From Actinomycetota bacterium (GTDB taxonomy: Bacteria > Actinomycetota > Aquicultoria > Aquicultorales > Aquicultoraceae), in the NCBI GenBank assembly GCA_018333515.1, contig JAGXSZ010000031.1, positions 17,654 to 81,653 of the forward strand: a stretch of 64,000 nucleotides of DNA, in the 5' to 3' direction. A program made the position numbers and the translations under genes. Below are positions 49,978 to 64,000 of the stretch, piece after piece; position 1 is the first letter of the stretch; the number at the start of each line of letters is the position of its first letter. The notes under the pieces are model-generated. The model ran no database searches. It was not told the origin of the DNA and was given only the letters and a program-made list of their open reading frames with translations.

Positions 49978-50002
49978 ACATATACCCTTGCCCCCTATAT
50001 GT
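49978..50002. promoter_or_regulatory. 7-bp inverted repeat flanking C-tracts (candidate metal-regulator operator upstream of copA)
   Basis: ACATATA-CCCTTGCCCCC-TATATGT. The AT-rich arms with a C-rich core resemble CsoR-type sites, but the core is not a C-tract/G-tract dyad. Confidence 0.35.
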
Positions 50003-50073
50003 ACAAAGTTATCATTTGCGAACTTGCCAAGTCAAATCGTCAGCCATATAGCGAGGTGGATTTATATGGATTG

Positions 50074-50102
50074 TTGACACTTTCACAACATCCTAAGATA
50101 AT
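50074..50102 (+). promoter_or_regulatory. Candidate sigma-70-type promoter of csoR
   Basis: TTGACA (50074-50079), 17 nt, GATAAT (50097-50102), followed by AGGGGTATAC overlapping the predicted transcription start. RBS GAGGTGGAG precedes the ATG at 50144. Confidence 0.6.
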
Positions 50103-50143
50103 AGGGGTATACGTATCTAGGCGAGGTCGAATGAGGTGGAGAA

Positions 50144-50419
50144 ATGACTTCATATACAGCCGACAAAGAAAAGATTTTATCAAGACTTAAGCGTATTGAG
50201 GGGCAACTCCGCGGTATCCAGCGGATGGTAAACGACGAAAAGTATTGCGTCGACATTCTGGTCCAGATATCGTCGGTTCTCGGCGCGACTCAGCGAGTAG
50301 GACTAATCATCCTTGACGACCACATCAAAGGCTGTGTGCGAGAGGCCATGTCGAGCGAGGACGAAGACTCGGCCATACAGGAACTGATGGATGTAATCCA
50401 GCGTTTTGTAAAGACCTAA
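50144..50419 (+). CDS. csoR: CsoR-family copper-sensing transcriptional repressor
   Basis: 91 aa with RLKRIEGQLRGIQRMV....YC.DIL.Q and H..GC, the C-H-C Cu(I) ligand pattern of CsoR/RcnR. It is divergent from copA. Confidence 0.9.
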   Translation: MTSYTADKEKILSRLKRIEGQLRGIQRMVNDEKYCVDILVQISSVLGATQRVGLIILDDHIKGCVREAMSSEDEDSAIQELMDVIQRFVKT

Positions 50420-50498
50420 CCGCTTCGGCACCCTCGTCAACTCTACCGAACGGCCGGCAGCGGGCCGGTCTCTATACCACATGGGCGCCGATTGTGAG

Positions 50499-51230
50499 CT
50501 AAACTGCGTCGCGGTCGCCTGTGCCGACTCCGCTTGGAGCGCGCAACACCGCCCCGGTCGCCGCGTCACTCACTATGACACCATCTCTCAACTCTATCAA
50601 ACGACCGGTATCGCGAATCGAGTCGGGATTGTGCGTGACCATTATTATGGTTTGGCCGTCCGCGTGCAAGGCTTGAAAGAGGTCGAGAATCTCGGAACCG
50701 GTCTTGCTGTCGAGACTGCCCGTCGGCTCGTCGGCGAGGAGCATAGGCGGGTCGTTTACGATAGCGCGCGCGATGGCGACACGGCTTTGCTCGCCTCCGG
50801 AAAGCTCCGACGGCAACCGTCTTGCTTTGTCCCCGAGGCCGACTTTTTCGAGCATCCGAGCCGCCCGCCCTTTCTTGTCCTTGACGTCGGACACGACCAA
50901 CGGCAGCATCACGTTTTCGAGCGCCGTAAGATACGGTATGAGCTGTGGCTGCTGAAAGACGAATCCCAAGTATTCGCGCCTGAAATCGGCCCGTTTCTCC
51001 TGCGATAGCGCGTAGACGTCGATACCGTCGACGAGGAGCGCGCCCTCACTCGGCGGGTTCATCGCACCCAAGATCGCCAGCAACGTGCTCTTTCCGCTCC
51101 CCGATGGGCCCATGACCGCGATATACTCGCCCGGCTCGATTGTAAAATCGACGTGCCGCAACGCATGGACTCTCGTCTCCTCATCGTTCCCATAATACTT
51201 GCAGACCCCGTTCGCTATCACCAGCGACAT
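50499..51230 (-). CDS. ABC transporter ATP-binding protein (MacB/LolD/FtsE-like)
   Basis: Walker [10 protein letters not shown], signature [14 protein letters not shown] and Walker [13 protein letters not shown]. Confidence 0.9.
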
Positions 51231-51261
51231 TAATAAAACCTCCTATGAAAGAAATCTACCC

Positions 51262-52419
51262 CTAAAGACTTTTGAGCGCGTCGGACGGATCCATGTTCGC
51301 CGCGCGGCGCGCCGGCATCGCGCTCGAGACGAGTCCGACGAAGACCGCTATCGCGAGCGCCAATAAAAAGACCGACGAACCGGCCTCGACCCGCAGTTCG
51401 ATACCTCGCACGAACCGCGGCAACGCGTATGTGGCGCCGAAACCGACAATATAGCCGACAATACCGCCGACAACGCTGACCGCCAGCGCCTCGGTTAGAA
51501 TTATCCGGGCAACGCTCGACTTCCGGTACCCCATCGCCCGAAATACGCCTATCTCTTGCTTGCGTTCGTTTACCGATGAGGTCATCGTCACAAAGACTAT
51601 AAACCCGCTTATCATTATGATAATCGCCGTCACCATCAACCCGAATCTGACGAGTGAGCCCATCGCCTCTTCCCGATATTTGACCGCCTGCTTGATTGAG
51701 GAGACCTCGGCACCCGGAAGCGCCTTCTCCAACTCGGCCACGACGGTGTCGATTTGGTCGCTTCGCCGCGCCGATATTTCAATGAGGCTCAACTCTTGAC
51801 CGCGGCCAAAGAGCGACTGCGCCAATTCGATATCGCTAAAGACCAGGCCGTCATCTTGGCTTCCGGTCTCATGTAAAATACCCGCCACCTTAAAGGTCTG
51901 TGAGCCGATTTTCACCGAATCGCCCACTTTTAGGCGGAGGCTCTTTGCGGCATCCGAACCGAGAATGACCTGGTCTTTCGACGAAGGTTTGTGCCCCGTG
52001 ACCTTCCACCACTTCTTAACCTGAAACTCCTCGTCGAAATCGACCCCGACAAGGAGCGCCTTCTTATTCTTGACCTCGATCGCCTGTAAGACCTTGGGCG
52101 ATATGGCCATAATATGATCCGCACTCCGAATCCGGCGCGCTTTCCCGAGGTCCGCTTCGGTCAAGGTTTCGACCTCGAACGTGTCGACGCCCGAGATATT
52201 CATGCCGCCGTAATTTAGCGAGAGGCTCGAAGAGGCGGGGTAAACCACGATATTGAAGCCGTACGCGTCGAGCTGGGTGTCGATGCTCTTTTCGAAAGCG
52301 AGCATCAAGGTGACGATAGAGACCATCGTCGCGATACCGACGGCCAACCCGACGACGACCAGCGTCGCCTTCCCTTTTCGTCGCGCGAGATTCTTAAAAG
52401 CAATCGTATGTAATCTCAT
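51262..52419 (-). CDS. FtsX/MacB-type ABC transporter permease
   Basis: 385 aa. It has TM1, a large extracytoplasmic domain, then three C-terminal TMs with the FtsX-family motif (EIGVFRAMGY). Confidence 0.85.
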   Translation of the reverse strand: MRLHTIAFKNLARRKGKATLVVVGLAVGIATMVSIVTLMLAFEKSIDTQLDAYGFNIVVYPASSSLSLNYGGMNISGVDTFEVETLTEADLGKARRIRSADHIMAISPKVLQAIEVKNKKALLVGVDFDEEFQVKKWWKVTGHKPSSKDQVILGSDAAKSLRLKVGDSVKIGSQTFKVAGILHETGSQDDGLVFSDIELAQSLFGRGQELSLIEISARRSDQIDTVVAELEKALPGAEVSSIKQAVKYREEAMGSLVRFGLMVTAIIIMISGFIVFVTMTSSVNERKQEIGVFRAMGYRKSSVARIILTEALAVSVVGGIVGYIVGFGATYALPRFVRGIELRVEAGSSVFLLALAIAVFVGLVSSAMPARRAANMDPSDALKSL

Positions 52420-52428
52420 CAGAACATC

Positions 52429-53601
52429 CTATGTTATAGAGTTTAACGCCTCGGACGGGTCGAGGCGGGCGGCGACTGTCGCCGGATACACGCCTGCCAA
52501 CAACGATAGAACGACTACGCCGCCGATGGCAATAGCCGGGACGATAGGGTCGAAGACGACACCGACGTCCATACCGGTGGCGATCGGCGCGATATAGCCC
52601 GACGCCGAAAAACCGGCGAGATACCCGCCGACTCCGGCGACCAGTCCGACTATGGCCGATTCTAAGAGCACTATGAGGGCGATGTGAGACCGGCGGTAGC
52701 CGACCGCGCGAAAGACCCCTATTTCCCGGCGCCGCTCCCGAACCGCGCTCAACGTGTTCGTAAAGACTACGAGCGCGGCAACGATACCCATCGTCACCGA
52801 GAGTATCAGGCTGAAGAGGCTGAATTGGCCGATGACGGCATCGCGCGTCTCGGCGGCTTGGCGCACCGCCGCGACTTTGGCTCCCGGCAATTTCTCCCTT
52901 ACCTGCTCGACTATGTCATCAATGGGACAATCTTTGCACCACGCCGAGACCTCCGCGAAGCTGACCTCGCCCGGCCGCTCAAGGATAGCCTGGGCCTGCT
53001 TCATGCCTATAAATATTAGTTCGTCTTCTTCCGTGCCGACCTGTCCGAGTACACCGGCGACCCGAAACTCTTCGCCGGAGATGTTTAAGCTATCCCCGGC
53101 GCCTGCCCCGAGTCTGCGCGCCGCTTTACCGCCGAGTAAGATCTCGCGGTCGTTGGCGGGACGAACGCCCTGCTTTATCTCCCACCACTTCTTAAGATCG
53201 AACTCATCTTTGAAGCGAACCCCGGCGAGCATCGTCTTCGACCCGTTTACCTCGACTATGCCGAGGAGTTTCGGCGAGACGACCTTTACGTTGGCGCTCT
53301 CCTCTATGGTGCGGATCTTTTCGAGGTCTTTCTCGGTGAGCGAGTGCGAGCCGTACTGCAAGCCGCCGACGGTCACACCCGCGTATGTGAGGGGCAAGCT
53401 CTCGCTCTTGGGCGTAATGACCATATTCGCTCCGTACTCGTCGATTTTGTCCTGCAGGTCCATATGCATGGCTCTGGAGACCGTGTATAATCCGACGATG
53501 ACCGCTACGCCGACCGCGAGCCCGGCCACCAAAAGCGCGACCTTCGCGGGGTGCGTCTTTATATTCTTCCACGTTATGTGGTAGAGCCTCACAAAATTCA
53601 C
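52429..53601 (-). CDS. FtsX/MacB-type ABC transporter permease (paralogue of the downstream gene)
   Basis: 390 aa with the same topology and EIGVFRAVGY. Confidence 0.85.
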   Translation of the reverse strand: MNFVRLYHITWKNIKTHPAKVALLVAGLAVGVAVIVGLYTVSRAMHMDLQDKIDEYGANMVITPKSESLPLTYAGVTVGGLQYGSHSLTEKDLEKIRTIEESANVKVVSPKLLGIVEVNGSKTMLAGVRFKDEFDLKKWWEIKQGVRPANDREILLGGKAARRLGAGAGDSLNISGEEFRVAGVLGQVGTEEDELIFIGMKQAQAILERPGEVSFAEVSAWCKDCPIDDIVEQVREKLPGAKVAAVRQAAETRDAVIGQFSLFSLILSVTMGIVAALVVFTNTLSAVRERRREIGVFRAVGYRRSHIALIVLLESAIVGLVAGVGGYLAGFSASGYIAPIATGMDVGVVFDPIVPAIAIGGVVVLSLLAGVYPATVAARLDPSEALNSIT

Positions 53602-53691
53602 CTTTACATTAACTCTTAATCTTTATCTTAAACACTCATCGTTGACGCCGGGGTTTTGAGCCCCACGCCCCGTTTATTGCCCGCTTGCAAC

Positions 53692-53757
53692 GCGCCCCTC
53701 GGGCGGGCGCACCACAAGTGCTTCCGATAGCGCGAGCGCGCGCCCCTCGGGCGGGCG
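53692..53757. repeat. Two copies of an 18-nt GC-rich hairpin-forming direct repeat
   Basis: GCGCCCCTCGGGCGGGCG at 53692-53709 and 53740-53757. Each contains CGCCC-CTC-GGGCG. They lie between the Cys-rich protein gene and the first permease gene. Confidence 0.85.
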
Positions 53758-53761
53758 ACGA

Positions 53762-54247
53762 TTACTTAGGACGCACTGGAAACAACGTCTCTGAGAACTC
53801 GCCGTTTCTAAAAGAAAGTTCGGTGACTGCTTTGCCGTCCTTCTTAATCGTAATCTCGTAATGACATCCTAAGCTTTCGGCCTCGGCGGTGACCTCACGG
53901 TCGCCCGTTCTCTCGGCATAGTAATCCATAGCGGCCTTCTCTATCGCGGCAAGCTCCGTCGAGGCGGCCTGCGAACCGCCGGGGGCAACCTGTGCGGCCG
54001 AAGAACCGCAACTATCGCCACAGCTACCGCCGCCGCAAGAGCCCGGTTCGAACGCGGCTGCCTGGTTCGAAGCAACCGATTTTATGACATTGTTGAACAC
54101 GAGAAAGAGCGCGACAACCGCGACCCAAATCACCACATACTTGAGGGCCCGGCTCTTGGTGTCTTGCCTGGGGCTCACCTCGTCCGCTTCGCTCTTTGCC
54201 TCTTCGATCCTGCTCTCGTCCATAGGGGCCTCCTTACGCGTTGGCAT
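53762..54247 (-). CDS. Membrane-anchored protein with SCG-repeat Cys cluster and small C-terminal domain (function unknown)
   Basis: One TM segment (YVVIWVAVVALFLVF) and the extracytoplasmic run GSCGGGSCGDSCGSS, then a ~70-aa domain. The start could be MDESR at 54223. Confidence 0.6.
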   Translation of the reverse strand: MPTRKEAPMDESRIEEAKSEADEVSPRQDTKSRALKYVVIWVAVVALFLVFNNVIKSVASNQAAAFEPGSCGGGSCGDSCGSSAAQVAPGGSQAASTELAAIEKAAMDYYAERTGDREVTAEAESLGCHYEITIKKDGKAVTELSFRNGEFSETLFPVRPK

Positions 54248-54310
54248 ACATAAACTCCGCTAATTCCATCGTCACTTTTTTATGCCGTAAGACCGATTCG
54301 CGATAGACTA

Positions 54311-54985
54311 TTATTCATCGCCGACCGGCCTGTCGAGCGGCTGCGGCTCCCAGTCGGCCAGGTCGGCCTCGGCCAGCTCGATGTTTTTACCGACAAGTTC
54401 GTGCGCAATCGCATCGGCCGGATATAGCTTACATGAGCCGGAGATGCCGGCTTCGGTCTCAGGGTCGCGTTTGGTGCCGCAAGCATTACACGTCAGCGTC
54501 CCGTCGGCCTCAAAATGATGATACTTGGCCTGACAAGGCGGGCAATAACTTACTCCGGTAAAGAGTTCGCCCGAGGGCTTGATGTAAGCCATCATCGAGA
54601 TTGATTGGCCGTCCTTCGGCCGAAGATACTCAAAAGATACGATGCGGTCGACGATGACGTCTCCCGCTTTGATTATTACTTTGCCGTCCTTAACCTCGGG
54701 AATAACCGGAACCATGTCTATCCGGCGGTCGTAAACGACCGGCTCGGTCAGTTTCTCCGGTTTAAAATCGGACGGCAAATACCTGCCGATATATTTTGCC
54801 TCGGCGGCTGTCGGTTGCACCGAACCCGGCGTCTTGCCCGAGTTTGCATAGGCGACTATGAAACCCACGATAGCTACAACCGCGACGCTCAGCACGACGT
54901 ATAGAAGCGCCGGTTTCTTATTCTTCGGCTCGACAAAGTGTGCGCGCTTGCCTTTAAGCCTCTCATTAGCGTTCTTCTTATCCAC
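54311..54985 (-). CDS. DUF2318-like membrane-anchored Cys4 (metal/Fe-S-binding) protein
   Basis: N-terminal TM segment, then SYCPPCQ...CNACG...GSC. I recall this as the DUF2318 arrangement seen next to FtsX/ABC genes in iron-uptake loci. Confidence 0.6.
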   Translation of the reverse strand: MDKKNANERLKGKRAHFVEPKNKKPALLYVVLSVAVVAIVGFIVAYANSGKTPGSVQPTAAEAKYIGRYLPSDFKPEKLTEPVVYDRRIDMVPVIPEVKDGKVIIKAGDVIVDRIVSFEYLRPKDGQSISMMAYIKPSGELFTGVSYCPPCQAKYHHFEADGTLTCNACGTKRDPETEAGISGSCKLYPADAIAHELVGKNIELAEADLADWEPQPLDRPVGDE

Positions 54986-55139
54986 AACTAATCACCTCTC
55001 TAAATCTTTTTATATCTAATCGGCCGGCAATGCCTTGGCCTGATACCCATGTCCGCGTCAAAAATAAACCGGGCACACGAGCAAGTCTATCTTAACACAT
55101 CTACTACGGCCCATAGTAGTTAAACATAAAAAATTTTCA

Positions 55140-56111
55140 CTACTTGCAACATCCGTGGTTCTTAGCCACGCAGTCCGGTCCCTTACAGCAACCACCGACC
55201 GCATTTGCGTCTATCGCCGGCTGCGCATATGCAAAGCCCGCAACGATCAGCACAATGGTTGCGCTTGCGACGATGCTCAGCATCAACCCGGAGATAGAGG
55301 GGCGCGCTTTTATCTTCGGGTCGAGAAGACGTTGAACACGGTCTTTAGCCGACGCTCTCCCGGAGAAAAACGTCGCGTACGCCGGCGAGAACGTCACGCC
55401 GCGGGTAACCCTGGCCACAGAGACGATAGCCTCGGCCAGCTCGACCGGTTTTGCGGTAAGCTCGACCGCGAAGTCGTCGGCGGCGTATTCCTTCTCGCGA
55501 ACGAACAGGCCGAGCAAGTAGTGGCTTATCGGGAGAGGCCAGAGAAAATCACGGATGAAGATCGCGGCGAAGATCGCGAGGTTATCGCGACGCCGAACGT
55601 GGCCGATTTCGTGGGCGAGCAGCGCCGTCAGCTCATCATCTCTTAATTTGTCGATAAGCCCTTTAGAGATACATATAGAAGGGGCCAGCAGACCGTGCGT
55701 AAACGCCGCCACAGACTCGTCGTCGGCTATCCGAACCCTCATCTCTTCGGCGTTCAGCCCTAATAGGAGACGCTTAAGACGCGGCGATTCCTCTCCGTTG
55801 CGCTCATAACGCGCCGCCATCCTTCGGGCTGAAGCGAGCACAAGCACAGCTTTTACCAGCGCCGCGCCGAGCGCCACGATAGCCAAACTTACCAAAAGGT
55901 TCCGCGGGCTTCCTATAATTTGAGCGATGGATATATACGCGTCTTTGCATTCTGTCCCGAAACCCGCGCACGTCTCGGCGATACGCTTGACGGCAACGCC
56001 GTTCGCGAGCCACCGGTCGATGTTGTAGCCGATTGCCCCAATAGCCGCAAACCCCAATACGAGAAGGCCGATTATACTGATGCGCGTATTTCGCGAGGGC
56101 GTCTTGGTCAT
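55140..56111 (-). CDS. BlaR1/MecR1-type M56 zinc metalloprotease signal transducer lacking a penicillin-binding domain, with a Cys-rich C-terminal tail
   Basis: HEIGHVRRRD (HExxH), several TM segments and a final TM followed by only ~27 aa (QPAIDANAVGGCCKGPDCVAKNHGCCK). It overlaps the upstream BlaI-like gene by 4 nt. Confidence 0.75.
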   Translation of the reverse strand: MTKTPSRNTRISIIGLLVLGFAAIGAIGYNIDRWLANGVAVKRIAETCAGFGTECKDAYISIAQIIGSPRNLLVSLAIVALGAALVKAVLVLASARRMAARYERNGEESPRLKRLLLGLNAEEMRVRIADDESVAAFTHGLLAPSICISKGLIDKLRDDELTALLAHEIGHVRRRDNLAIFAAIFIRDFLWPLPISHYLLGLFVREKEYAADDFAVELTAKPVELAEAIVSVARVTRGVTFSPAYATFFSGRASAKDRVQRLLDPKIKARPSISGLMLSIVASATIVLIVAGFAYAQPAIDANAVGGCCKGPDCVAKNHGCCK

Positions 56112-56533
56112 TCCTCTATCCGACTTCTCTTCTGCTTAATCAGGCGCTCAAGCTCGTCGAGGGTCGCTGTGTCTTCGGTGATGTTCTCGACAAAAAAACT
56201 TAAAGCTTGCTTTCCGAGGTCTTCATGGAAACCGTTGAATACCGAGGCGAACATGGTCTGGTTGAACTCTTCTTTGCTAAGGAGCGCCCTATAGAGATAT
56301 TGCTTTCCGTTGCGCTCTTGAAATAGGATGTTTTTCTCGGCCAAGCGGCTCATTACCGTCATTACGGTCGTATAAGCTATTTCGCGGTCTCTCTCAAGGA
56401 TACCGTGGATCTCCCTTACGCTTGCCGGGTCTTTCTCCCATACAAGCTCCATTATGTCGGCCTCAAGGTCACCGAGCATCTTTCTCACACCCGACTCGGC
56501 CGGTCGAAAACTTCCCAGCTTGAACCGCTTCAT
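56108..56533 (-). CDS. BlaI/MecI/CopY-family winged-helix repressor
   Basis: 141 aa with E..IM..VW.....SVREI...L......AYTTVMTVMSRL..K. There is no C-terminal CxCxxxxCxC, so it is not a CopY-type direct copper sensor. Confidence 0.85.
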   Translation of the reverse strand: MKRFKLGSFRPAESGVRKMLGDLEADIMELVWEKDPASVREIHGILERDREIAYTTVMTVMSRLAEKNILFQERNGKQYLYRALLSKEEFNQTMFASVFNGFHEDLGKQALSFFVENITEDTATLDELERLIKQKRSRIEE

Positions 56534-56563: not shown

Positions 56564-56580
56564 TACTATGCTTTGTAGTA
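56564..56580. promoter_or_regulatory. Candidate BlaI-type operator
   Basis: TACTA-TGCTTTG-TAGTA dyad lies 31 nt upstream of the BlaI-like start. It contains TAC/GTA half-sites like BlaI/MecI/CopY boxes, but not the exact TACAnnTGTA. Confidence 0.3.
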
Positions 56581-56698: not shown

Positions 56699-57421
56699 AT
56701 GGGCGGCAGTCCCGACATTGGAATACTTATAGCGTTTACAGCGGGCATTATATCGTTCTTATCACCCTGTATTTTGCCGCTCATCCCAGGGTACCTCTCC
56801 TTTATATCGGGAATCTCCGTCGACCGCCTCGGCGAATCGAGCGGCCGGGAACGGTTCAAAATCCTATTCGCCACCCTCTTGTTTGTGGCCGGCTTTGCGA
56901 CGATATTCGTCGGTCTGGGCGTATCGGCCGGCCTGGTAGGCGTTTCCTTGACGAACTATCAATCGATTATGACAAAAGTGGCCGGTATCACCATTATCCT
57001 GTTCGCCTTGTTCACAATGGATATCATTAAAATACCGCAGCTCTACAACACCAAGCGTTTTCAATCAAAGACCACGCGCCAACGGAGTCTATGGGGGGCG
57101 CTGCCGCTGGGCATGGCCTTTGGTTTCGCCTGGACACCGTGTGTCGGCCCGGTGCTCGGCTCGATATTCATGGTGGCCGCGACCGGCGACAACGTTAGTC
57201 AGGGAGCGGTACTCTTGAGCGTCTACGCCCTCGGCCTGGGTATTCCGTTTATCGCGACGGCGCTCTTCTTCAACACGGCGCTCAACGCGTTCGGCTGGAT
57301 AAAAAGGAATTATCGCGCGGTAAATATAGTAAGCGGGGTACTACTGCTGGCAATGGGCATTTTAATACTGACCAATAAGATGGCGGCGGTCAACTCGTAT
57401 ATATTGAAACTGACCGGCTAG
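56699..57421 (+). CDS. ccdA: CcdA/DsbD-family thiol-disulfide transporter (cytochrome c maturation)
   Basis: 240 aa with 6 TM segments. The first TM has SPCILPLIPGYL and the fourth has TPCVGPVLG, the two conserved Cys of CcdA. Confidence 0.9.
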   Translation: MGGSPDIGILIAFTAGIISFLSPCILPLIPGYLSFISGISVDRLGESSGRERFKILFATLLFVAGFATIFVGLGVSAGLVGVSLTNYQSIMTKVAGITIILFALFTMDIIKIPQLYNTKRFQSKTTRQRSLWGALPLGMAFGFAWTPCVGPVLGSIFMVAATGDNVSQGAVLLSVYALGLGIPFIATALFFNTALNAFGWIKRNYRAVNIVSGVLLLAMGILILTNKMAAVNSYILKLTG

Positions 57422-57649
57422 GTCTTCAAGCGACCGAGCCGGTGTTACCGGATGGTTTCGCCCCTCTGTGACGCCCAATGATATCTTCGTTTTTTCGATT
57501 AATCCTCGTCGGAGCGGACCGTAAATTAACCTAACGGCGCTGAGCGTTTGACATGCCGAAATTGATAATATTTTAGCATTCTGGGCGTTAAAATCGCTCT
57601 TATTATATTAAACCCGCTGTCCAGCACGTTTTTTTTTGGTAAAATTTGC

Positions 57650-57680
57650 TTGACAGTGACCTCTATGTAGCATTTATAAT
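57650..57680 (+). promoter_or_regulatory. Candidate sigma-70-type promoter of the cytochrome operon
   Basis: TTGACA (57650-57655) and TATAAT (57675-57680) with a 19-nt spacer, or TTTATA with 17 nt. A ~225-nt leader precedes the first cytochrome gene. Confidence 0.55.
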
Positions 57681-57904
57681 AACCGTATCGTAGCTTCCTA
57701 GAAGTCCTAACCGTATATACATTAGGCTAGCTCAGCTGAGTTAATGCTGCTGAGCGAGTGCTCGGCTCATAAGCATAAGCGGATATGATTTGCGATCAAT
57801 ATGTGTTATCATGTTACAAACTTTTGTGTTTTAACTAAAGTCAAATGCGCTTAAGCCGATGTCTCTTTAATGCAAGCAAAAACAACCATGGGGACGGTAC
57901 ATCA

Positions 57905-58777
57905 ATGCCAGACTTAAAAGGGATGTCTTCCAGGACAAAAAAACTTATCTTAACGATAGCCGCTTCCCTCACGGTCTTTTCCATTGCTGTCGTGGTAGCC
58001 GGAACGGCTATGACGAGTCGTCCGCAAACCTGCAGCCTCTGCCACGCAATGCAAGAGCCTGTCAAAGCGTGGCAGGCCTCATCGCATGAAAAAATAACCT
58101 GTATCGAATGCCACCACAAGGAACCCGGCTATTTAGGGTTTGCCGTAGGTATTCCCACCAAGGTCAGTGAGGCTACGAAGCACATCACCGGCGACTATCA
58201 GATCCCGGTTAGAGCGAAGCACGACACCAAGAGTAAGGTCTGCCAAAAATGTCACGTTAGCTGGCGAAACGTATCCCCCGGCGGCGACCTTATCATACCC
58301 CACAATCTCCACTTCGAGAAACGCAAAATCGAATGCGTCGTATGCCACTCCTCGGTCGTCCACGGCGAGGACAGGGATAACGAGATTACGAGGCGTCCGG
58401 CAATGCAGCTCTGCTTGAGTTGCCACGATACCGGCAGAGAGAACGCGCCTATCCTTAAGTGTAAGGATTGCCATACTGAAAAAGGCGTACCGTCGAGCCA
58501 TAACGAAAAAGATTGGTTCGAGATGCACGGGCAGCTCTATAAGGACCCGAATCATCCCGACAGCCAATGCGACGATTGCCATGGTTGGACGCCGACATTC
58601 TGCAGCGACTGCCATAAGAGCAAGCTTCCGACGACCCACTACGGCGGCAGCCAGTGGAAGACATTTCACAGCATTCGCGCCAAAGTCAGAAAGAGCGGTT
58701 GTCTGGTCTGTCATGACGCGAAGACCTTCTGTTATAGGTGTCACGATCCATTTGAAGATGTTGAGAAGGGTAAATAA
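57905..58777 (+). CDS. Membrane-anchored decahaem c-type cytochrome (NapC/NirT-like N-terminus plus paired CxxCH motifs)
   Basis: One N-terminal TM segment (LILTIAASLTVFSIAVVVAG). Ten CxxCH motifs: CSLCH, CIECH, CQKCH, CVVCH, CLSCH, CKDCH, CDDCH, CSDCH, CLVCH, CYRCH. I chose the start MPDLK (57905). The ORF track runs from 57845. Confidence 0.85.
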   Translation: MPDLKGMSSRTKKLILTIAASLTVFSIAVVVAGTAMTSRPQTCSLCHAMQEPVKAWQASSHEKITCIECHHKEPGYLGFAVGIPTKVSEATKHITGDYQIPVRAKHDTKSKVCQKCHVSWRNVSPGGDLIIPHNLHFEKRKIECVVCHSSVVHGEDRDNEITRRPAMQLCLSCHDTGRENAPILKCKDCHTEKGVPSSHNEKDWFEMHGQLYKDPNHPDSQCDDCHGWTPTFCSDCHKSKLPTTHYGGSQWKTFHSIRAKVRKSGCLVCHDAKTFCYRCHDPFEDVEKGK

Positions 58778-58779
58778 AC

Positions 58780-59619
58780 GTGAGCAACGAGGCTAAGGGA
58801 TTGCTGGGTAAAATCAAAGATTTCTACAATAACAACCAACGCAAGGCGAATATCATCATAATCGCGATTGCGGCGTTTGGTGTCTTCACCTATGGAGCGC
58901 TCCAATATACCGGAAGTCCCGGCTTCTGCAAAAGTTGCCATGAGATGAACCCGGCCTTCGATAGCTGGAAAGCCTCGGTCCACTCGGAGGTAACCTGCTA
59001 TTCGTGCCATATGCCGCCGGGCATCGTAAACTTCGCGACCCACAAAGTGATCGCCTTAAAGGAAGTCTACCTTCACTTTACGGTCTACAATAAGCCAAAC
59101 GCGCCGAAGATAGTCGCACGTCAAAAAGAGCCGGTCAATGACGCCTGCGGTAATTGTCACTCCCTCAACAGGGAGATGGCGTTCGGCGGCGGTCTCAACG
59201 TGCCCCATAAGCTCCATATCGAACAAGGACTAAAGTGCACGACTTGTCACGCGAGAGTAGTTCACGGGCTCGGCGACGATAAGGCCCGCAAGCCGAAGAT
59301 GGAAACGTGTATGAAGTGCCACGACGGCAAGAAAGCGCCCGATAAATGCGATGTCTGCCATACCAAGATGGGGACTCCTGAAAGTCATCAGCAGGCGAAC
59401 TGGTTCAAAGTCCATGGTGAGCAATCCAAGACCATTAAATGTAACGAGTGCCATAACTGGAGACCCGACTGGTGTATGGATTGCCATACCAAGAAACCCG
59501 AATCGCACGCCGTGCGCTGGAGGTCGAACCATGGCTCGGCGGCGAAAGCTGCTCGGGACGGCTGCAACGCTTGCCACACGCTCGACTTCTGCATGCGCTG
59601 TCATGGTGTCCAACCTTAA
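58780..59619 (+). CDS. Membrane-anchored decahaem c-type cytochrome, collinear paralogue of the upstream gene
   Basis: GTG start 2 nt after the upstream stop and a TM segment (IIIIAIAAFGVFTYGAL). Ten CxxCH motifs: CKSCH, CYSCH, CGNCH, CTTCH, CMKCH, CDVCH, CNECH, CMDCH, CNACH, CMRCH, with the same spacing pattern as the previous protein. Confidence 0.85.
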   Translation: MSNEAKGLLGKIKDFYNNNQRKANIIIIAIAAFGVFTYGALQYTGSPGFCKSCHEMNPAFDSWKASVHSEVTCYSCHMPPGIVNFATHKVIALKEVYLHFTVYNKPNAPKIVARQKEPVNDACGNCHSLNREMAFGGGLNVPHKLHIEQGLKCTTCHARVVHGLGDDKARKPKMETCMKCHDGKKAPDKCDVCHTKMGTPESHQQANWFKVHGEQSKTIKCNECHNWRPDWCMDCHTKKPESHAVRWRSNHGSAAKAARDGCNACHTLDFCMRCHGVQP

Positions 59620-59852
59620 TAAGCGAGTATGCCGCTAAAGACTAGACGGTAAATCTAAACGCCGGGCGAGCACCGGTATTATCTGCAAGATTCTCGATAT
59701 CTCAACTCCCGAACATGTTGGGCTCATTAATCCGCAATTCGACCTTGCCGAGGTTTGACTCAGAGCTCTCCGGCGCTTACGCAAAACAAAAGATACTCGC
59801 GGCTGTTGTAAAATCCCTCTCTTAATCCTAAGATTGAGACAGGAGGCCGAAG

Positions 59853-61400
59853 ATGAACTGCGATGATGCCAGGCGTTCGCTCGCCGACTACACTGACGAC
59901 CAACTAAGTGAAGATATTCGCCGCGACGTCGAGGAGCATCTCACAACATGCGGCGAATGCGCTGCTATACCGGCTAAGTTACGCGAACTTCCCCAGTCGT
60001 TGCGAGACATCCCTCCTCTTCTCGTCCCGGAATCCATATATCAGCAGCTAGCCGACAAAGCGGCCGGGACGTTTAAAGCTACAGCGGGTAGACGCAAAAT
60101 CGCGCCCCGAGGCCTGGAACGGTTTGCGCGCTCGGCTACACTTGGCGTCGCCGCTATCTTCATAGCCGTGACTCTTGCCGCCTTCACCTTCGCCCTCATG
60201 TTCGATCAGGGGTTCGCAATACTGGATATCTTCAACATCAGTGACCTCGCGCCCGAACCGGGACAGAGTGCCGCTGAGAGGACCCTGAACCAGAGCTTTG
60301 AAGACCTCGTGTTAAAAGCAGAGAGCGGTGGCCCCAGAGCCTATGATTACCTCCCGCGCCCGGAAATCTTAGTGTCGGGAAAACACTACGCTGAGGATGC
60401 CTTGGAACAGGTCGCGATCCAGCCCATAATCGTCGCTTTTTCTCAGGAATACCGGACCGTCGAAGCAAAGCTCTACCGAGCCAACATCATATCTGAGATT
60501 ACAGCTCAAGCGGCTATCCTTGGTCTGGAGAAGCGCGTTTTGGGTCGGTGTATGGAGACCATTCTTGCGACGACAAACGACCTCGCCCTCCCCTCTTACG
60601 TCGAAAAAGCCTTCTTGAACGAAAAAGAGGTCTTGTTTATCGTCGTCAACCGCACCGATGCGAAAAGCGGTAAACTGCTCACCGGAATCTCGGTCTTCGC
60701 GTTCGACCCTGCAACCGCATCCATTGTGGCGACCTGGCCGCAGACTCCATTGAGCCAGGCGGTCGAGTTGCGTGACATTAATCCGCACAAATCGCTTGCC
60801 TGCATCGCATGCCACCCTAACTTTGAGGGTTCGACAAAAGATCTCGAGGACGCAGGCTGGAAAGAGGTCGCCAAGCGTACCTGCTCGCAATGCCACAGCC
60901 ACAAAAAGCAGCACGAAATTTATGCTAAGAGCATCCACGGGCAATTGGCGCTCAGCAAAAGAACCGGTAAAGGGGGCGTGCCGGCGCCGGCTTGCGGCGA
61001 CTGCCACGATGCGCACGCGACGCTGGCATCGAACAAGAAACCGCAAACCCTTGCCGAGATGAGAACTCACGCCAAAAATATTTGCGGCGACTGCCATAAA
61101 GACTATTGGGAATCGTACAACGATTATTACCACGGTAAAGCATATAAAGCGGCCGCCCCCGACGCACCGGCATGTTGGGACTGCCACGGAAACCACGACA
61201 TTCAACCTTCGCGCAATCCGAAATCGCGAGTATCCGGAAAAAACTTGCCGAAAACTTGTAGTGCCTGCCATGCGGAAGCTGAGCTAAAGTTCGTCAAATA
61301 TGGAAAAATGGTGCATGGTATGAAAGCGGAGCAAGACAAAAGTCCGGTTTGGCGGCAATTCGACAGCGGGCTCGAAGCGTTGAAAGGACTTCTGAGATGA
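59853..61400 (+). CDS. Zinc-anti-sigma (zf-HC2)-like N-terminal domain - TM - extracytoplasmic domain - C-terminal hexahaem cytochrome c domain
   Basis: N-terminus MNCDDARRSL...EEHLTTCGEC (C...H-x3-C-x2-C) and a TM segment LGVAAIFIAVTLAAFTFALMF. Six CxxCH motifs lie in the last ~190 aa (CIACH, CSQCH, CGDCH, CGDCH, CWDCH, CSACH). RBS AGGAGG. Confidence 0.8.
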   Translation: MNCDDARRSLADYTDDQLSEDIRRDVEEHLTTCGECAAIPAKLRELPQSLRDIPPLLVPESIYQQLADKAAGTFKATAGRRKIAPRGLERFARSATLGVAAIFIAVTLAAFTFALMFDQGFAILDIFNISDLAPEPGQSAAERTLNQSFEDLVLKAESGGPRAYDYLPRPEILVSGKHYAEDALEQVAIQPIIVAFSQEYRTVEAKLYRANIISEITAQAAILGLEKRVLGRCMETILATTNDLALPSYVEKAFLNEKEVLFIVVNRTDAKSGKLLTGISVFAFDPATASIVATWPQTPLSQAVELRDINPHKSLACIACHPNFEGSTKDLEDAGWKEVAKRTCSQCHSHKKQHEIYAKSIHGQLALSKRTGKGGVPAPACGDCHDAHATLASNKKPQTLAEMRTHAKNICGDCHKDYWESYNDYYHGKAYKAAAPDAPACWDCHGNHDIQPSRNPKSRVSGKNLPKTCSACHAEAELKFVKYGKMVHGMKAEQDKSPVWRQFDSGLEALKGLLR

Positions 61401-61463
61401 GATATGGCATTCAAAAAACGCCGGTCGAGTATCCGGCAAGGAGAGTGGAGAGGTCTGTTTGGT

Positions 61464-62360
61464 ATGAAGTGCGGTAAGGCATTGCGCTTACTCCCCTTTT
61501 ATTATGATGGGATTTTAAGACAGGAGCGCGCTGAAGAGGTCTCCTCACATATTCGCGCGTGCCCATCGTGCTCGGCTGAACTCCTTAAGATAGAACGGTT
61601 ATCACAGGCGCTCTATTCGCTATCCGATGTAGAGCTACCGCGCTCGCTAGCGGAAGAACTCGAGTCGACTCTGCGCAAACGCAATATCCATCGGCTTTCG
61701 ACAAAAGCAAGGCGCTACTCCATAGAGAAGCGCGCTTCCCTACTGCGCGCGGCTCTAAGCTTAGGATACGCGGCACTCGTCGCCGCAAGCGTTTTAGCTA
61801 TAACCAAATCAGGTGTCTGGCAGAACCGGCAAGCGCCATCGGCAGGCGCCCCAGGCGCCCTTGAAAATCAGAATTCGCGACCACCCGTAAAACTTAAGCA
61901 GCCGCTCAAAGAGAAACGTGCGGAGCCGGGAGTGGAGAGCCTCGAGCGCTTTAAGGGAGGCATAGGGCTTTCGCTCCAACCCGAAGTGGCAATCTCAAAG
62001 CAGGACTACACGGTAGAAGATGTGGATGATGTGAAGTTCACGTCGGTCGTTCTAAGCTTTGCCGACCGATATACCGCGGAAGATGCGGTAGCTTTGCGCG
62101 GTAAAATGGTAAGTGGTATCATCGACGCCGCTGGACAGGCCGGCCAAGATATAGGCTCGACCTCGCGGGCACTGTCGACCGCGCTCGCCGCCATCGATAA
62201 ACCCGCGCTCCCCGCGTACGCCGAACGCGCTAGCCTTCAGGGGCGCGACGTCTGGCTTTTTGTCCTGGTGTGGAGTCCCGGAGGCTCCACGGGGGCTCTT
62301 TCGAGCGCCTCGGTGGTCGCGGTCGACCCGGCGTCGAACGAGGTCGTGCTCACCAAATAA
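61464..62360 (+). CDS. Zinc-anti-sigma (zf-HC2)-like transmembrane protein, haem-less paralogue of the upstream gene
   Basis: MKCGKALRLL...SHIRACPSC (H-x3-C-x2-C) and a TM segment LLRAALSLGYAALVAASVLAI. The extracytoplasmic part aligns with the middle of the upstream protein (ALPAYAERASL..VWLFVLV / ALPSYVEKAFL..VLFIVV; VVAVDPASNEVV / VFAFDPATASIV). The ORF-track start at 61404 is an alternative. Confidence 0.7.
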   Translation: MKCGKALRLLPFYYDGILRQERAEEVSSHIRACPSCSAELLKIERLSQALYSLSDVELPRSLAEELESTLRKRNIHRLSTKARRYSIEKRASLLRAALSLGYAALVAASVLAITKSGVWQNRQAPSAGAPGALENQNSRPPVKLKQPLKEKRAEPGVESLERFKGGIGLSLQPEVAISKQDYTVEDVDDVKFTSVVLSFADRYTAEDAVALRGKMVSGIIDAAGQAGQDIGSTSRALSTALAAIDKPALPAYAERASLQGRDVWLFVLVWSPGGSTGALSSASVVAVDPASNEVVLTK

Positions 62361-62415
62361 TCTCAACGCTGACCGGATGGAAAAGGCGCTGACGTCTCTT
62401 TACTGAGGGGCTCGG

Positions 62416-63288
62416 CTAACCCTCGTGATGCGCATCGTGGGCGACTTCGGTGTTCGTGTTTTCCGCACGGTCCTCCTCACCCGATTTGTTTCTCCGCTCT
62501 TTTAAATCATGCGGCTTTATGCCGAAAAAGAAGAACAGCAGCGCCGGTAGATCCTCGGTGATCGCGAGATAGATATGCGCGCACATAAACGCACTCACGA
62601 CCCAGGTCACGAAATAATGGACGGTTCTCACGTAGACCCGCGCCAGCGCAAGCCCTCCCACTGAGGATGCCGGCCAACCGAGAAGCTGCGGCGAAAACAG
62701 CAGCGCAAGCCCGGTCACTATCTGAATGAAGATTAACGTGGGAACCATGAGACCGTATGATGCTTTCTGCATCGGGTTATAGGTTGCGACGTGCGGTTTC
62801 GACTTGGCCATGAACGCATAGTATTTAAGCGTCGGCACAAAGGCCGTCATGTCTTTCTTGGTAAGCGCGAATTCGCGGTAATCCTTGCTCTTATGGAGAA
62901 ACGCATAGCCGATTCTTATGAAGAATATCGCCGTGACGGCGAAAGCCGCGACATAGTGCAGATATTTGATGGTCGTGCGATTACCGAAAGGCAGTTCAAA
63001 CGGAAATCGGATATATATGCCGCTCACCATCAACACGACCATCGAGCCCACCAACATCAAGTGCATAGAACGACGAACCAACGATGGTAATTCCACATGG
63101 TCGGGCCACTGCCATAATTTGAACCGCTTGCGGGCCCGACCGGTCATTACGTTGCCGGTAAAATGACCGACATACATGCCGATGATGACGAGTACCAGAA
63201 GCGCGGGCCCGATGACATCAAGCGCCAGGTTTATTTGTATGATGGGAAGCGACTCATTCATCAAACCCCGTTTCTGCCGAGACAACAC
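62416..63288 (-). CDS. Integral-membrane b-type cytochrome (Ni/Fe-hydrogenase / formate dehydrogenase gamma-like cytochrome b family)
   Basis: 290 aa with about 5 TM segments carrying conserved His (VGHFTG, SMHLMLVG, KYLHYVAAF, TVHYFVTW, CAHIYLAI). An acidic/His tail follows. An alternative start is MNESLP at 63261. Confidence 0.65.
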   Translation of the reverse strand: MLSRQKRGLMNESLPIIQINLALDVIGPALLVLVIIGMYVGHFTGNVMTGRARKRFKLWQWPDHVELPSLVRRSMHLMLVGSMVVLMVSGIYIRFPFELPFGNRTTIKYLHYVAAFAVTAIFFIRIGYAFLHKSKDYREFALTKKDMTAFVPTLKYYAFMAKSKPHVATYNPMQKASYGLMVPTLIFIQIVTGLALLFSPQLLGWPASSVGGLALARVYVRTVHYFVTWVVSAFMCAHIYLAITEDLPALLFFFFGIKPHDLKERRNKSGEEDRAENTNTEVAHDAHHEG

Positions 63289-63556
63289 AGAGGGCGTGAA
63301 TCGCTTATGCGACTGCTATCTCGGGGCAACAAGATCGCACTTACATATTCAGCTTTGCGATTGCATCATACATCTTCGGCGCGGAGCAATCAAGCGCCGA
63401 GTAATACTAAGCGGCTTCGAGCCTTCGACCTTATTTTGAGGATCAGTATTAAGGCAAGGGTTTATTGTGCAAGGTCACGCGCTAATCAATACCGTGTTGA
63501 TATCGCGCTACAGCGGTTTGTGGATAATTCCGTAGCACAAATTCCTTAAAATCTCC

Positions 63557-63585
63557 TTGTAAGTAACAAACCGTTATTACATAAT
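63557..63585 (+). promoter_or_regulatory. Candidate promoter of the third NapC/NirT-like cytochrome gene
   Basis: TTGTAA (63557-63562), 17 nt, CATAAT (63580-63585). A GGGGGG RBS precedes the ATG at 63635. Confidence 0.4.
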
Positions 63586-63634
63586 ATTATCGATATCTTT
63601 ATCATCAATCGTTTAGCTGAGGCTTGGGGGGACT

Positions 63635-64000
63635 ATGCCGGATACGGTGGAAGAGCCACAGAAAACATCGGGCGGAAAAACGGGAAAATTCAAGCGTGGG
63701 TATTTTTTGGCGATTGCCGTTGCCCTTCTGGCGCTCTTTCTAGCCATCCCCTATGCCTATACGTCCGACCCCAAGAGCTGCACCCTCTGCCACAGTATGG
63801 ACAAATACTATGAATCGTGGCAAAAATCGACACATGCAACCGCCGCAAGCAATTGTTTTGAATGCCATGTTAAAGACGGCACTTTGAATATATGGGTCTA
63901 CCGTATTAGCTTCTATCGTGAAATATACGCGAGCATAGTCGGCGCCGAACTCAAACCGGCCGGCGCCACCGTGCCCGGTGTGGATTCATGTCAGAAACAA
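63635..64000 (+). CDS. NapC/NirT-like membrane-anchored multihaem cytochrome, 3'-truncated by the window end
   Basis: Not in the ORF track because no stop is reached. My own translation is MPDTVEEPQKTSGGKTGKFKRGYFLAIAVALLALFLAIPYAYTSDPKSCTLCHSMDKYYESWQKSTHATAASNCFECHVKDG... It has the same TM-CxxCH-W..S.H-CxxCH start as the two decahaem proteins. Confidence 0.75.
   Translation, partial: MPDTVEEPQKTSGGKTGKFKRGYFLAIAVALLALFLAIPYAYTSDPKSCTLCHSMDKYYESWQKSTHATAASNCFECHVKDGTLNIWVYRISFYREIYASIVGAELKPAGATVPGVDSCQKQ

Follow-up and report, generated by a model that had tools for sequence, protein, structure and literature searches.

The passage of electrons through the thick wall of a monoderm cell is known from a few Firmicutes, and for Actinomycetota there are only gene lists. 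In the model of extracellular electron transfer (EET) for Thermincola, the cytochromes ImdcA, PdcA, CwcA and OcwA take part (PMC7911101). Multihaem clusters with CymA-like quinol oxidases, NHL proteins and TPR proteins have been described in Dethiobacter alkaliphilus, where EET was inferred (PMC10376724). Multihaem-rich Actinobacteria have been reported since 2017-2020, for example Coriobacteriales S27 (PMC7399161), and Parvivirga and Anaerosoma are multihaem Actinomycetota, the former a cultured obligate Fe(III) reducer in which EET has been shown physiologically (PMC9686372). None of the Dethiobacter, S27, Parvivirga or Anaerosoma loci has been biochemically dissected. Here we analyse a stretch of 64,000 nucleotides (the window) from contig JAGXSZ010000031.1 of assembly GCA_018333515.1. 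The window closes with the opening 7 kb, the membrane-proximal part, of a multihaem cytochrome island of an uncultured Candidatus Aquicultor. The island as a whole is probably of a known sort, the Gram-positive multihaem EET island. Its new element is a pair of membrane proteins with an anti-sigma-like ZAS domain, one of which is fused to a six-haem cytochrome (the ZAS-hexahaem protein) and the other of which carries no haem motif (ZAS2).

The window encodes 28 CxxCH motifs in four open reading frames (ORFs) located between 57.9 and 64.0 kb (10 + 10 + 6 + 2). Because all 28 of the motifs present in the complete set of six-frame ORFs of at least 60 aa (63,184 residues) are confined to these four ORFs, with none elsewhere, their clustering is not due to chance. 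A preliminary description, made from the letters of this DNA, had reported the same count and gene anatomy, and our ORF listing and motif counting reproduce both exactly. Its genes stand, and what required correction were the starts of decahaem A, ZAS2 and the cytochrome b gene, for which gene calls on an identical contig indicate likely positions 57905, 61464 and 63261, respectively.

On the forward strand, the island opens with ccdA (56699-57421), whose product has no CxxCH. This gene is followed by those for two decahaem cytochromes, each with ten CxxCH and one N-terminal transmembrane (TM) helix: decahaem A (290 aa; 57905-58777, in an ORF open from 57845) and decahaem B (279 aa; 58780-59619). 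The genes for the ZAS-hexahaem protein (515 aa; 59853-61400; six CxxCH) and ZAS2 (298 aa; 61464-62360, in an ORF open from 61404; no CxxCH) come next. The reverse strand then encodes a cytochrome b without CxxCH (281 aa as called; 62416-63261, in an ORF that extends to 63288), and the 5' part of a first NrfH-like cytochrome gene (63635-64000, forward strand) contributes two CxxCH before it leaves the window. TM helices were predicted with a hydropathy script. The proteins are assigned to DsbD_TM, Cytochrom_NNT/Cytochrome_C7, zf-HC2 and Ni_hydr_CYTB above Pfam gathering scores, which are 24.1 bits for Cytochrom_NNT (PF03264) and 22.2 bits for zf-HC2. NCBIfam concurs at sub-equivalog scores, with models for NrfH, for an anti-sigma factor and for the cytochrome b of hydrogenase or formate dehydrogenase.

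Decahaems A and B and the product of the gene at 63635 each combine one N-terminal TM helix with a Cytochrom_NNT score above the gathering cut-off, which are the marks of the NapC/NirT/NrfH family. These scores are 29.8 bits for decahaem A (which also matches Cytochrome_C7 above cut-off), 71.6 bits for decahaem B, and 42.7 bits (E = 6.5e-11) for the fragment at 63635. The NCBIfam scores (49-75 bits) fall far short of the equivalog cut-off of 134, and the match of decahaem A to the NrfH model TIGR03153 (E = 6.5e-13) lies under the cut-off of that model. Decahaems A and B align collinearly and are paralogous (34% identity, E = 3e-49), and the start of decahaem B is situated two bases past the stop of decahaem A. 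Residues 29-160 of decahaem B match the NrfH structure 2J7A (E = 9e-11). This alignment places CKSCHEM of decahaem B on the CxxCHxM motif of NrfH, a Lys on a Lys, and a Glu on the acidic residue of the ARDVY stretch. Decahaem B, with 20 His for its 10 haems, is laid out as an NrfH-type N-terminal tetrahaem module plus six further haems. The CxxCHxM form of the haem 1 motif is likewise found in decahaem A (CSLCHAM) and in the first NrfH-like gene (CTLCHSM), as well as in the pentahaem and dodecahaem cytochromes encoded downstream. Across a decahaem family of 17 members, all ten CxxCH are invariant and the haem 1 Met is kept in 15.

The CcdA protein matches PF02683 (DsbD_TM; E = 1e-20, 74 bits) and has several hydrophobic segments. 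It contains exactly two Cys residues, in SPCILP and in TPCVGP, which gives the arrangement of DsbD_TM-type proteins, namely the fold match with one Cys in each of two segments. These characteristics are those expected of a DsbD-type thiol-reductant exporter, which would support haem attachment to apocytochromes c. The ccdA gene resides directly 5' of decahaem A in all related loci (L007, L020, L024, L025 and L028).

The window is cut off within the island. We found it to be identical (100% over the 14,148 bases compared) to contig k141_31908 of ENA ERZ27300244 (123.5 kb; locus L001), where further cytochromes along with TPR, NHL, GerMN and secreted-cytochrome genes bear out the earlier expectation that the system continues beyond position 64000. 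The first NrfH-like gene, which is complete on this contig (L001 13783-14400, 205 aa), is followed by two more in a tandem array of near-identical genes (205, 205 and 215 aa; window 63635-64000 and L001 13783-15886). Each of the three proteins has five CxxCH and, at the position of NrfH haem 3, one CX4CH (CQKQGCH or CQRSGCH), inside the first copy of which the window ends. Judging from these motifs, each is probably a hexahaem cytochrome; we call them pentahaems after their CxxCH count. Beyond them, L001 encodes a 349-aa dodecahaem with an NrfH module, a TPR protein, an NHL beta-propeller protein with two TM helices, a GerMN lipoprotein and a secreted cytochrome of ~495 aa. Together, the two decahaems, three pentahaems and dodecahaem amount to six paralogous NrfH-type membrane anchors, each extended by 1-8 haems.

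The host can be named from several matches. The 515-aa ZAS-hexahaem protein is present with identical sequence on nine assembled contigs, and the nearest named proteins are labelled 'Candidatus Aquicultor sp.' and 'Aquicultorales'. A genome scan in which the downstream secreted cytochrome served as query located a corresponding locus in Candidatus Aquicultor primus (L005), the nearest relative with a name, with 83% identity and the gene order kept. Because the genus Candidatus Aquicultor belongs to the Actinomycetota (class Aquicultoria), the host is likely to be monoderm, which makes the same expectation of the preliminary description a reasonable one. The A. primus island runs on through a 255-aa membrane protein, 12-haem and 11-haem cytochromes, two small lipoprotein-like genes, a Wzy_C-TPR protein, a second TPR/NHL pair and a secreted cytochrome with six CxxCH, and this continuation adds ~29 further haem motifs. 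The island spans at least 15 kb on L001 and, if synteny with A. primus is a guide, roughly 25 kb.

The core of the island is conserved in related loci. For example, an Actinomycetota metagenome-assembled genome (MAG; locus L007) carries ccdA, decahaems A and B, two pentahaems, a dodecahaem, and TPR, NHL, GerMN and secreted-cytochrome genes. The module composed of these last four genes (L001 17250-21548) is also found, in full or in part, in L005 and L008-L016. Beyond Aquicultor-like MAGs, it recurs in Coriobacteriia MAGs (L008, L009, L013 and L016) and in one MAG labelled Eubacteriales (L012), and a Thermoleophilia locus (L010) has cytochromes and the TPR gene before the locus ends. The module often adjoins a pair of 11/12-haem NrfH-like cytochromes. 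Its secreted cytochromes, which have seven CxxCH in the full-length A. primus orthologue, form a family with seven conserved CxxCH, several more invariant His, and the invariant motif PHGGY..t.NkCk.CHAvHRaeG.

No Pfam-recognisable catalytic reductase, molybdoenzyme or porin was found in the window, over the 7.5 kb that follow it on L001, or over a further ~10 kb of the orthologous A. primus locus. The lack of NrfA, Nap, Tor, Hao, a molybdoenzyme or a porin that had been noted for the cluster holds over the window plus ~17 kb (7.5 kb of contig and the rest from A. primus). Within that span, no catalytic partner of the kind co-encoded with NapC, NirT or NrfH proteins (NrfA, NapAB, NirS or TorA) accompanies the anchors. 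Likewise, no beta-barrel porin of the Mtr/Pcc type (MtrB/PioB) was found among the window ORFs scanned, the L001 gene calls or the A. primus ORFs scanned. The preliminary description had named three findings that would speak against it, namely a reductase next door, a characterised homologue of the whole gene set, and a diderm host, and none of these has emerged.

Taken together, the gene content, domain families, motifs, paralogy, synteny and host affiliation, along with the lack of a reductase nearby, make it fairly probable, in our judgement, that the island supplies a set of quinol dehydrogenases, working side by side, whose electrons enter a chain of haems leading outward, as in Gram-positive EET. 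In such a system, CcdA would export reducing equivalents and keep the many CxxCH sites reduced for haem attachment. The NrfH-type anchors (two decahaems, three penta(+1)haems and the dodecahaem) would draw electrons from the quinol pool at the membrane, and a cytochrome b/c unit described below, composed of a HyaC-like dihaem cytochrome b and the hexahaem domain, would act as a further quinol dehydrogenase. The extra haems of these proteins would hand electrons outward to wall or surface cytochromes, for which the secreted proteins with seven and six CxxCH are candidates, beside the TPR, NHL and GerMN proteins. The net result would be EET without a dedicated catalytic reductase. By analogy, the multiple quinol oxidases may parallel the potential-specific ImcH, CbcL and CbcBA systems of Geobacter.

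The same inventory could serve the respiration or detoxification of a soluble substrate (nitrite, sulfite, tetrathionate, humic or quinone compounds, or metal chelates), with one of the multihaem cytochromes as the catalyst, in which case the island would be no wire to solids. NrfH-type modules classically serve catalytic partners, and the secreted family, with its seven conserved CxxCH and several invariant His, might supply one. A precedent is offered by OcwA of Thermincola, a relative of NrfA/Otr-type enzymes, which is closer in structure to multihaem enzymes of the nitrogen and sulfur cycles and reduces oxyanions and shuttles (Costa et al. 2019, as cited in PMC7911101). However, searches of Pfam, NCBIfam and the PDB revealed no likeness to NrfA, Otr, Hao, MccA or other catalytic cytochromes, and the CxxCK motif occurs in 0 of the 6 proteins wholly inside the window. 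Furthermore, six redundant NrfH-type anchors in a TPR/NHL/GerMN context match the islands of organisms that reduce solids (PMC10376724). We consider a soluble substrate unlikely.

Electron flow might also be directed inward, such that Fe(II), a cathode or a syntrophic partner reduces the quinone pool. Nothing in the sequence fixes the direction, and CymA and CbcL/MtoC-type proteins are shared by Fe(III)-reducing and Fe(II)-oxidising organisms, and no sequence feature tells the two uses apart (PMC6295460). On the other hand, cultured relatives with comparable cytochrome sets, such as Parvivirga, reduce Fe(III) (PMC9686372), and a NiFe hydrogenase by the b/c unit of a related Aquicultorales locus suggests flow from H2 to an acceptor. 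Inward flow seems to us rather improbable, if somewhat less so than a soluble substrate. A third arrangement, in which a diderm host uses a conventional periplasmic pathway with a porin-cytochrome complex encoded elsewhere, would accommodate the weak, sub-threshold Pfam matches to the MtrC/MtrF domain II/IV model. This arrangement is very hard to reconcile with the assignment of the host to Candidatus Aquicultor and the Actinomycetota. It is opposed as well by the lack of any porin or outer-membrane gene among the scanned ORFs, which cover most of the window, and among those scanned in A. primus, and by a gene context of peptidoglycan hydrolases and spoVG, veg and abrB that is typical of monoderms. 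We regard a diderm host as highly improbable.

Five observations limit the support for the proposal that the island is an outward EET system. First, a word-indexed protein search with decahaem B recovers a narrow family of 16 matches, all close relatives, and no Thermincola protein is among them. Second, the AlphaFold model of decahaem B has a mean confidence (pLDDT) of 51 and is unusable for a fold search or for the geometry of a haem wire. Third, the secreted cytochromes, whether searched against the PDB as single sequences or as a nine-sequence profile, have no significant match (OmcE 7TFS, E = 3.5). Structures of OmcS, OmcE and OcwA have been solved, and the PDB sequence searches lend no support to membership of the secreted cytochromes in these groups or to a likeness to MtrC. 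Fourth, ResB/ResC (CcsA) were not found in the window or the related loci, where a scan for the WWD motif came up empty. Fifth, the cytochrome b of the window has no BLAST similarity to the membrane part of a CbcL-type fusion, P0034.

This last protein is informative for the origin of the cytochrome b and of the hexahaem domain. The cytochrome b gene is convergent to the ZAS genes, and its product, with five predicted TM helices, matches PF01292 (Ni_hydr_CYTB; 77 bits) and the structure of HyaC, the cytochrome b of E. coli hydrogenase-1 (4GD3; E = 1.9e-7). Its His residues correspond to those of HyaC at four positions (TM1, TM2 and twice in TM4), as would be expected of a dihaem HyaC/FdnI-type membrane subunit that reacts with quinol or quinone. 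P0034 is a 715-aa b+c fusion that has the architecture of CbcL, with a multihaem N-terminal half and a Ni_hydr_CYTB membrane half, and its haem repeats are related to the hexahaem domain of the ZAS-hexahaem protein (39% identity, E = 6e-28).

Among proteins without a ZAS domain, P0009 (Aquicultorales) and P0010 are the most closely related to the hexahaem domain. In both cases (loci L030 and L032), the gene lies directly after a Ni_hydr_CYTB gene with a 4-nt overlap. Another multihaem cytochrome gene is located 3' of the pair, and after it come genes for a repeat protein, which Pfam recognises as TPR in L030 but does not match in L032, and for an NHL protein. The hexahaem domain of the window is 47% identical to P0009 (E = 2e-73), and the cytochrome b of the window is 46% identical to the cytochrome b coupled to P0009 in L030 (E = 7e-61). 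Because both are similar to the P0009 c/b pair, we read the hexahaem domain and the convergent cytochrome b as a b/c unit that is apparently a diverged copy of a translationally coupled quinol:cytochrome c oxidoreductase operon, with the hexahaem domain presumably derived from the c subunit. This origin, which points to a quinol-oxidase-like unit, had been overlooked in the preliminary description. To judge from its split genes, its six haems and a b part that is unlike by BLAST, the unit is outside the fused CbcL family proper. Genes for the small and large subunits of a NiFe hydrogenase are present a few kb 3' of the unfused b/c operon (L030 15257-16990 and L032 16482-16981), and this proximity hints at an H2-driven chain.

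The ZAS-hexahaem protein is composed of a cytoplasmic zinc anti-sigma (ZAS) domain (59853-60122), a TM segment (60135-60203), an extracytoplasmic alpha/beta domain (~60345-60743) and the hexahaem c domain (60780-61397), all on the forward strand. ZAS2 has the same ZAS domain, TM segment and alpha/beta domain but no cytochrome domain, and aligns with the first ~300 residues of the fusion at 24% identity (E = 1e-16), which marks the two proteins as paralogues. Each has one TM helix at residues 95-117 with basic residues on its N side, and each matches zf-HC2 (30.2 bits for the fusion and 26.7 bits for ZAS2). The Zn ligands C3, H29, C33 and C36, which form an HxxxCxxC motif with an upstream Cys, do not vary across eight full-length homologues with identities as low as 35%, and all six CxxCH of the ZAS-hexahaem protein are fixed in the same eight. 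All four ligands are also kept in both paralogues, such that the pair presents the features of a ZAS anti-sigma factor: the HxxxCxxC motif, a fourth ligand and an N-terminal helical domain.

The N-terminal domain of the ZAS-hexahaem protein is modelled by AlphaFold with a pLDDT of 85-94. Foldseek aligns this ZAS domain with RslA of M. tuberculosis (3HUG; probability 0.87, TM-score 0.64, 30% identity) in a match that is confined to the N-terminal 50 residues, the E value for the whole model (2.2) not being significant. For the whole ZAS-hexahaem model, there is no match at E <= 0.001, and a PDB sequence search with the protein returned nothing. The alpha/beta domain (residues 170-295), which is confidently modelled and common to ZAS2, has no recognisable relative. 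We rejected an LpoB-like assignment for this middle domain (Foldseek E about 1), and a 220-aa protein encoded 5' of the b/c operon in L030, considered as a possible relative, proved to be unrelated to it.

When residues 1-300 of the fusion were searched exhaustively against 1.84 billion representatives, 444 matches were obtained, of which 150 were listed. Nearly all of the 444 cover residues 1-110 only, as generic ZAS domains do, and several hundred are ZAS anti-sigma factors. Approximately two dozen of the 150 listed span all 300 residues. Among the matches listed, the cytochrome extension is found in three full-length proteins (P0001, P0006 and P0138) and in the shorter, 437-aa P0008. By this measure the ZAS-hexahaem fusion is very rare, and a full-text literature search returned no description of a fusion between an anti-sigma factor and a multihaem cytochrome. 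ZAS2 gave 5 matches, all close relatives, in the word-indexed search.

ZAS2 follows the ZAS-hexahaem gene in L020, L022, L025, L026 and L028, and the pair is tandemly duplicated ahead of the cytochrome b gene in L020 and L022. In L024, a ZAS2-type gene lies directly after decahaem B, and the locus ends soon after this gene. Synteny marks the ZAS pair as a separable insert in the island, given that L007 has the core genes without it.

What might such a pair do? We tentatively propose that the ZAS-hexahaem protein and ZAS2 constitute a new class of transmembrane redox sensor, in which an anti-sigma factor has recruited the c subunit of a quinol:cytochrome c oxidoreductase as its outer sensor. 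Electron load or the availability of an acceptor, read at the b/c unit, could then cause the release of an unlinked extracytoplasmic function (ECF) sigma factor. In other words, the ZAS-fused c subunit and its haem-less paralogue would relay the redox state or occupancy of the chain through the membrane to a sigma factor whose gene lies elsewhere. Our confidence in this specific mechanism is low.

The pair could instead be structural, with a former anti-sigma module serving only as a type II membrane anchor or dimerisation scaffold that holds the c subunit by the cytochrome b and the other cytochromes, and with no part for a sigma factor. This explanation fits the location of the pair inside the cytochrome operon and in the same orientation. 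It also fits the occurrence of the same haem domain on a plain signal anchor in P0009 and P0010, and the observation that the N-terminal 60 residues, the Zn ligands excepted, are the least conserved. It draws further strength from the result that no sigma-factor gene was found in the 64 kb or in related loci. In contrast, four invariant Zn ligands in both paralogues would be needless for a mere anchor, and the similarity to hundreds of genuine ZAS anti-sigma factors is significant and extends to an RslA-like fold. ZAS anti-sigma factors encoded away from their own sigma factor are known, which counts against a purely structural role. A simple anchor is, in our view, a possibility to be held as loosely as the sensor mechanism itself. 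Because the Zn ligands are invariant in both paralogues and a respiratory subunit has been recruited as the outer domain, we favour some kind of sensor role for the pair, although this too is a tentative preference and the regulatory function is an inferred one.

Several findings make such a sensor role less secure. A weak phmmer test, with E. coli RpoE as query and no positive control, detected no sigma-factor gene in the window or the L001 tail, nor in L005 or 29 loci, and none appeared among the other large window ORFs scanned with Pfam. The adjacent gene for a cognate ECF sigma factor that is characteristic of ZAS proteins was thus not found in the loci searched. Moreover, in L028, an Aquicultor lineage, the ZAS pair has no adjacent cytochrome b, and the island of L007 has no ZAS pair. 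Finally, the promoter of the main operon is of the housekeeping TTGACA/TATAAT type. The suggestion in the preliminary description that the island carries a built-in regulator must accordingly be regarded as unproven, given that no sigma-factor gene was found nearby and that the main operon promoter is not of the ECF type.

This promoter is situated in the 483-bp intergenic region between ccdA and decahaem A. The long leader reported there earlier is partly correct, in that the gap is real, and comprises a conserved promoter followed by a leader of ~215 nt. The cytochrome operon promoter (57650-57680, forward strand) has TTGACA and TATAAT hexamers separated by 19 nt. Both hexamers and this unusually long spacing are invariant in six lineages. 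The sequence of the spacer varies, and we therefore rejected a MerR-type operator within it. A second, promoter-like element precedes the ZAS genes (59806-59834, forward strand; TTGTAA-N17-TAAGAT); it was recognised by consensus match only, and equivalent TTGTAA/TAwGAT elements are kept in L020, L024, L025 and L028. Neither element looks like an ECF-type promoter, and the targets of any sigma factor that the ZAS proteins might control are not evident here.

The 5' leader (57687-57904, forward strand) is ~215 nt long in the window and 215-255 nt across the six lineages. Two boxes within it, CTAAAGTC (57835-57842) and GCCGATG (57855-57861), are invariant or nearly so in these lineages and lie ~45-70 nt before the start codon. 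A Shine-Dalgarno sequence, GGAyGGT, is common to all six. RNAalifold applied to the six orthologous leaders yielded no conserved pairs, and Rfam had no match across 54-64 kb. Without a match or a conserved fold, a riboswitch-like leader was rejected, and no RNA structure or known operator accounts for the two boxes.

Genes for a BlaI/CopY-like repressor and an M56/M48 BlaR1-like protein are divergent from ccdA in every lineage, L007 included. This conserved pair flanking the island, with an operator of its own, had escaped the preliminary description. The palindrome TACTAyN5rTAGTA is found before the blaI-like gene, in the region shared with ccdA (56564-56580), and before an FtrD-like gene (55102-55118). 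The palindrome is perfect and kept at two places in five lineages, with further copies at 940 in L007, at 3224, 3257 and 4740 in L024, at 3501 and 4976 in L025, and at 3826 and 5317 in L028. The window holds two perfect copies, and three with no more than one mismatch, against an expectation of 0.55. The palindrome is probably the operator of the BlaI/CopY-like repressor; the canonical BlaI/CopY box TACAnnTGTA is absent, and a different palindrome is found in its place. TACTAyN5rTAGTA does not occur at the cytochrome promoter, and because it is missing there we do not take the BlaI/BlaR1-like pair to be the regulator of the island. We treat the pair as part of a neighbouring, probably metal-related regulon.

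The adjacent genes form a metal- or copper-type cluster (47404-56533, mostly reverse strand). It encodes a CopA-like P-type ATPase with two HMA domains, CsoR, an ABC ATPase, two MacB/FtsX permeases, a 161-aa Cys/Gly-rich protein, the FtrD-like protein, the BlaR1-like M56/M48 protein, which ends in GGCCKGPDCVAKNHGCCK, and the BlaI/CopY-like repressor. From MacB to blaI, the block keeps its synteny with the island across all Aquicultor-like loci.

By Pfam scans, the remainder of the window is housekeeping DNA, including mfd, pth, prs, glmU, ksgA, eno, pyk and peptidoglycan hydrolases. Homologues of spoVG, veg and abrB, which the preliminary description had cited as context, are all present (31660-31917, reverse; 34175-34465, reverse; and 39283-39576, forward), with E values of 1e-19 to 7e-31 against the B. 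subtilis proteins. They are part of a Firmicutes-like block (mfd, pth, L25, prs, glmU, spoVG, ridA, ispE, veg, ksgA and a YabE-like gene) in a genome that is actinomycetotal. A 1071-aa protein with PAS, four GAF and PP2C (SpoIIE) phosphatase domains (13343-16558, reverse) and an RsbW/SpoIIAB-like anti-sigma kinase (HATPase_c_2; 3875-4354, reverse) are partner-switching components, yet no sigma-factor gene was found in the window.

The locus offers a compact, conserved parts list for an uncultured, deep-branching class of Actinomycetota, comprising CcdA, six NrfH-type anchors, a split b/c unit, TPR, NHL and GerMN proteins, and a secreted seven-CxxCH cytochrome family. Because it recurs in Coriobacteriia and partly in a Thermoleophilia locus, the TPR-NHL-GerMN-cytochrome module is a candidate for a shared actinobacterial wall-crossing module. 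If the anti-sigma/cytochrome fusion is regulatory, it would reveal how a cell senses its extracellular electron chain, which is an open question even in Geobacter and Shewanella, and the protein is small enough for in vitro work. Should the ZAS pair prove to be a mere anchor, what is left is one more predicted EET island. The central idea has clear precedent, and every function assigned here is a prediction.

When this locus is compared with described systems, the preliminary view that it falls outside the textbook layouts turns out to be overstated, given that multihaem islands combining quinol oxidases of the NapC/CymA sort with NHL and TPR proteins are on record for the Gram-positive iron reducers Thermincola (PMC7911101) and Dethiobacter (PMC10376724). 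Like Dethiobacter, Coriobacteriales S27, Parvivirga and Anaerosoma, the host is a presumed monoderm with many multihaem cytochromes, CymA-like oxidases, and NHL and TPR proteins. The accounts of these organisms (PMC10376724, PMC7399161 and PMC9686372) do not include the Aquicultoria island, its GerMN protein, the seven-CxxCH secreted family or the ZAS pair. In the literature searched, there is no description of the Aquicultoria locus, of the conserved TPR-NHL-GerMN-secreted-cytochrome module or, above all, of the ZAS-cytochrome fusion.

The likeness to Thermincola lies in a monoderm cell, a membrane decahaem proposed as the menaquinol oxidiser, proposed wall or surface multihaem cytochromes, and no separate reductase. 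It is functional and architectural only; the PDB searches with the secreted cytochromes gave no significant link to OmcS/CwcA or to OcwA. Thermincola belongs to the Bacillota, whereas the present host is one of the Actinomycetota. The decahaems here are 279-290 aa long with a clear NrfH module, compared with an apoprotein of ~42 kDa for the Thermincola decahaem, and six NrfH-type anchors, a cytochrome b, a ZAS pair and GerMN are absent from the Thermincola model.

The b/c unit resembles the CbcL/Cbc systems of Geobacter (PMC6295460) in joining a HydC/FdnI-type dihaem cytochrome b to a multihaem cytochrome c, and in belonging to an organism with several alternative quinol oxidases. CbcL, however, is one polypeptide with nine haems and six TM helices, whereas the present unit is split between two convergent genes, has six haems and a b part with five predicted TM helices, and bears an anti-sigma domain on its c part. 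A 2018 survey recorded no CbcL homologue in Actinobacteria (PMC6295460). Like NrfH (2J7A), NapC, NirT and CymA, the anchors begin with a TM helix, after which four CxxCH appear in matching order, the first of them as CxxCHxM; the Lys and the acidic residue align as well, as seen in decahaem B. They differ from that family in carrying 1-8 extra haems per polypeptide, with no NrfA, NapAB, NirS or TorA partner found. Finally, the ZAS proteins resemble RslA (3HUG), RsiW and, by motif, RsrA in their HxxxCxxC motif with an N-terminal Cys, their single pass with the N terminus inside, and a helical domain that superposes on RslA. They depart from these anti-sigma factors in having no adjacent sigma gene, in the six c-type haems predicted to lie outside the membrane, and in the pairing of the fusion with a haem-less paralogue within a cytochrome operon.

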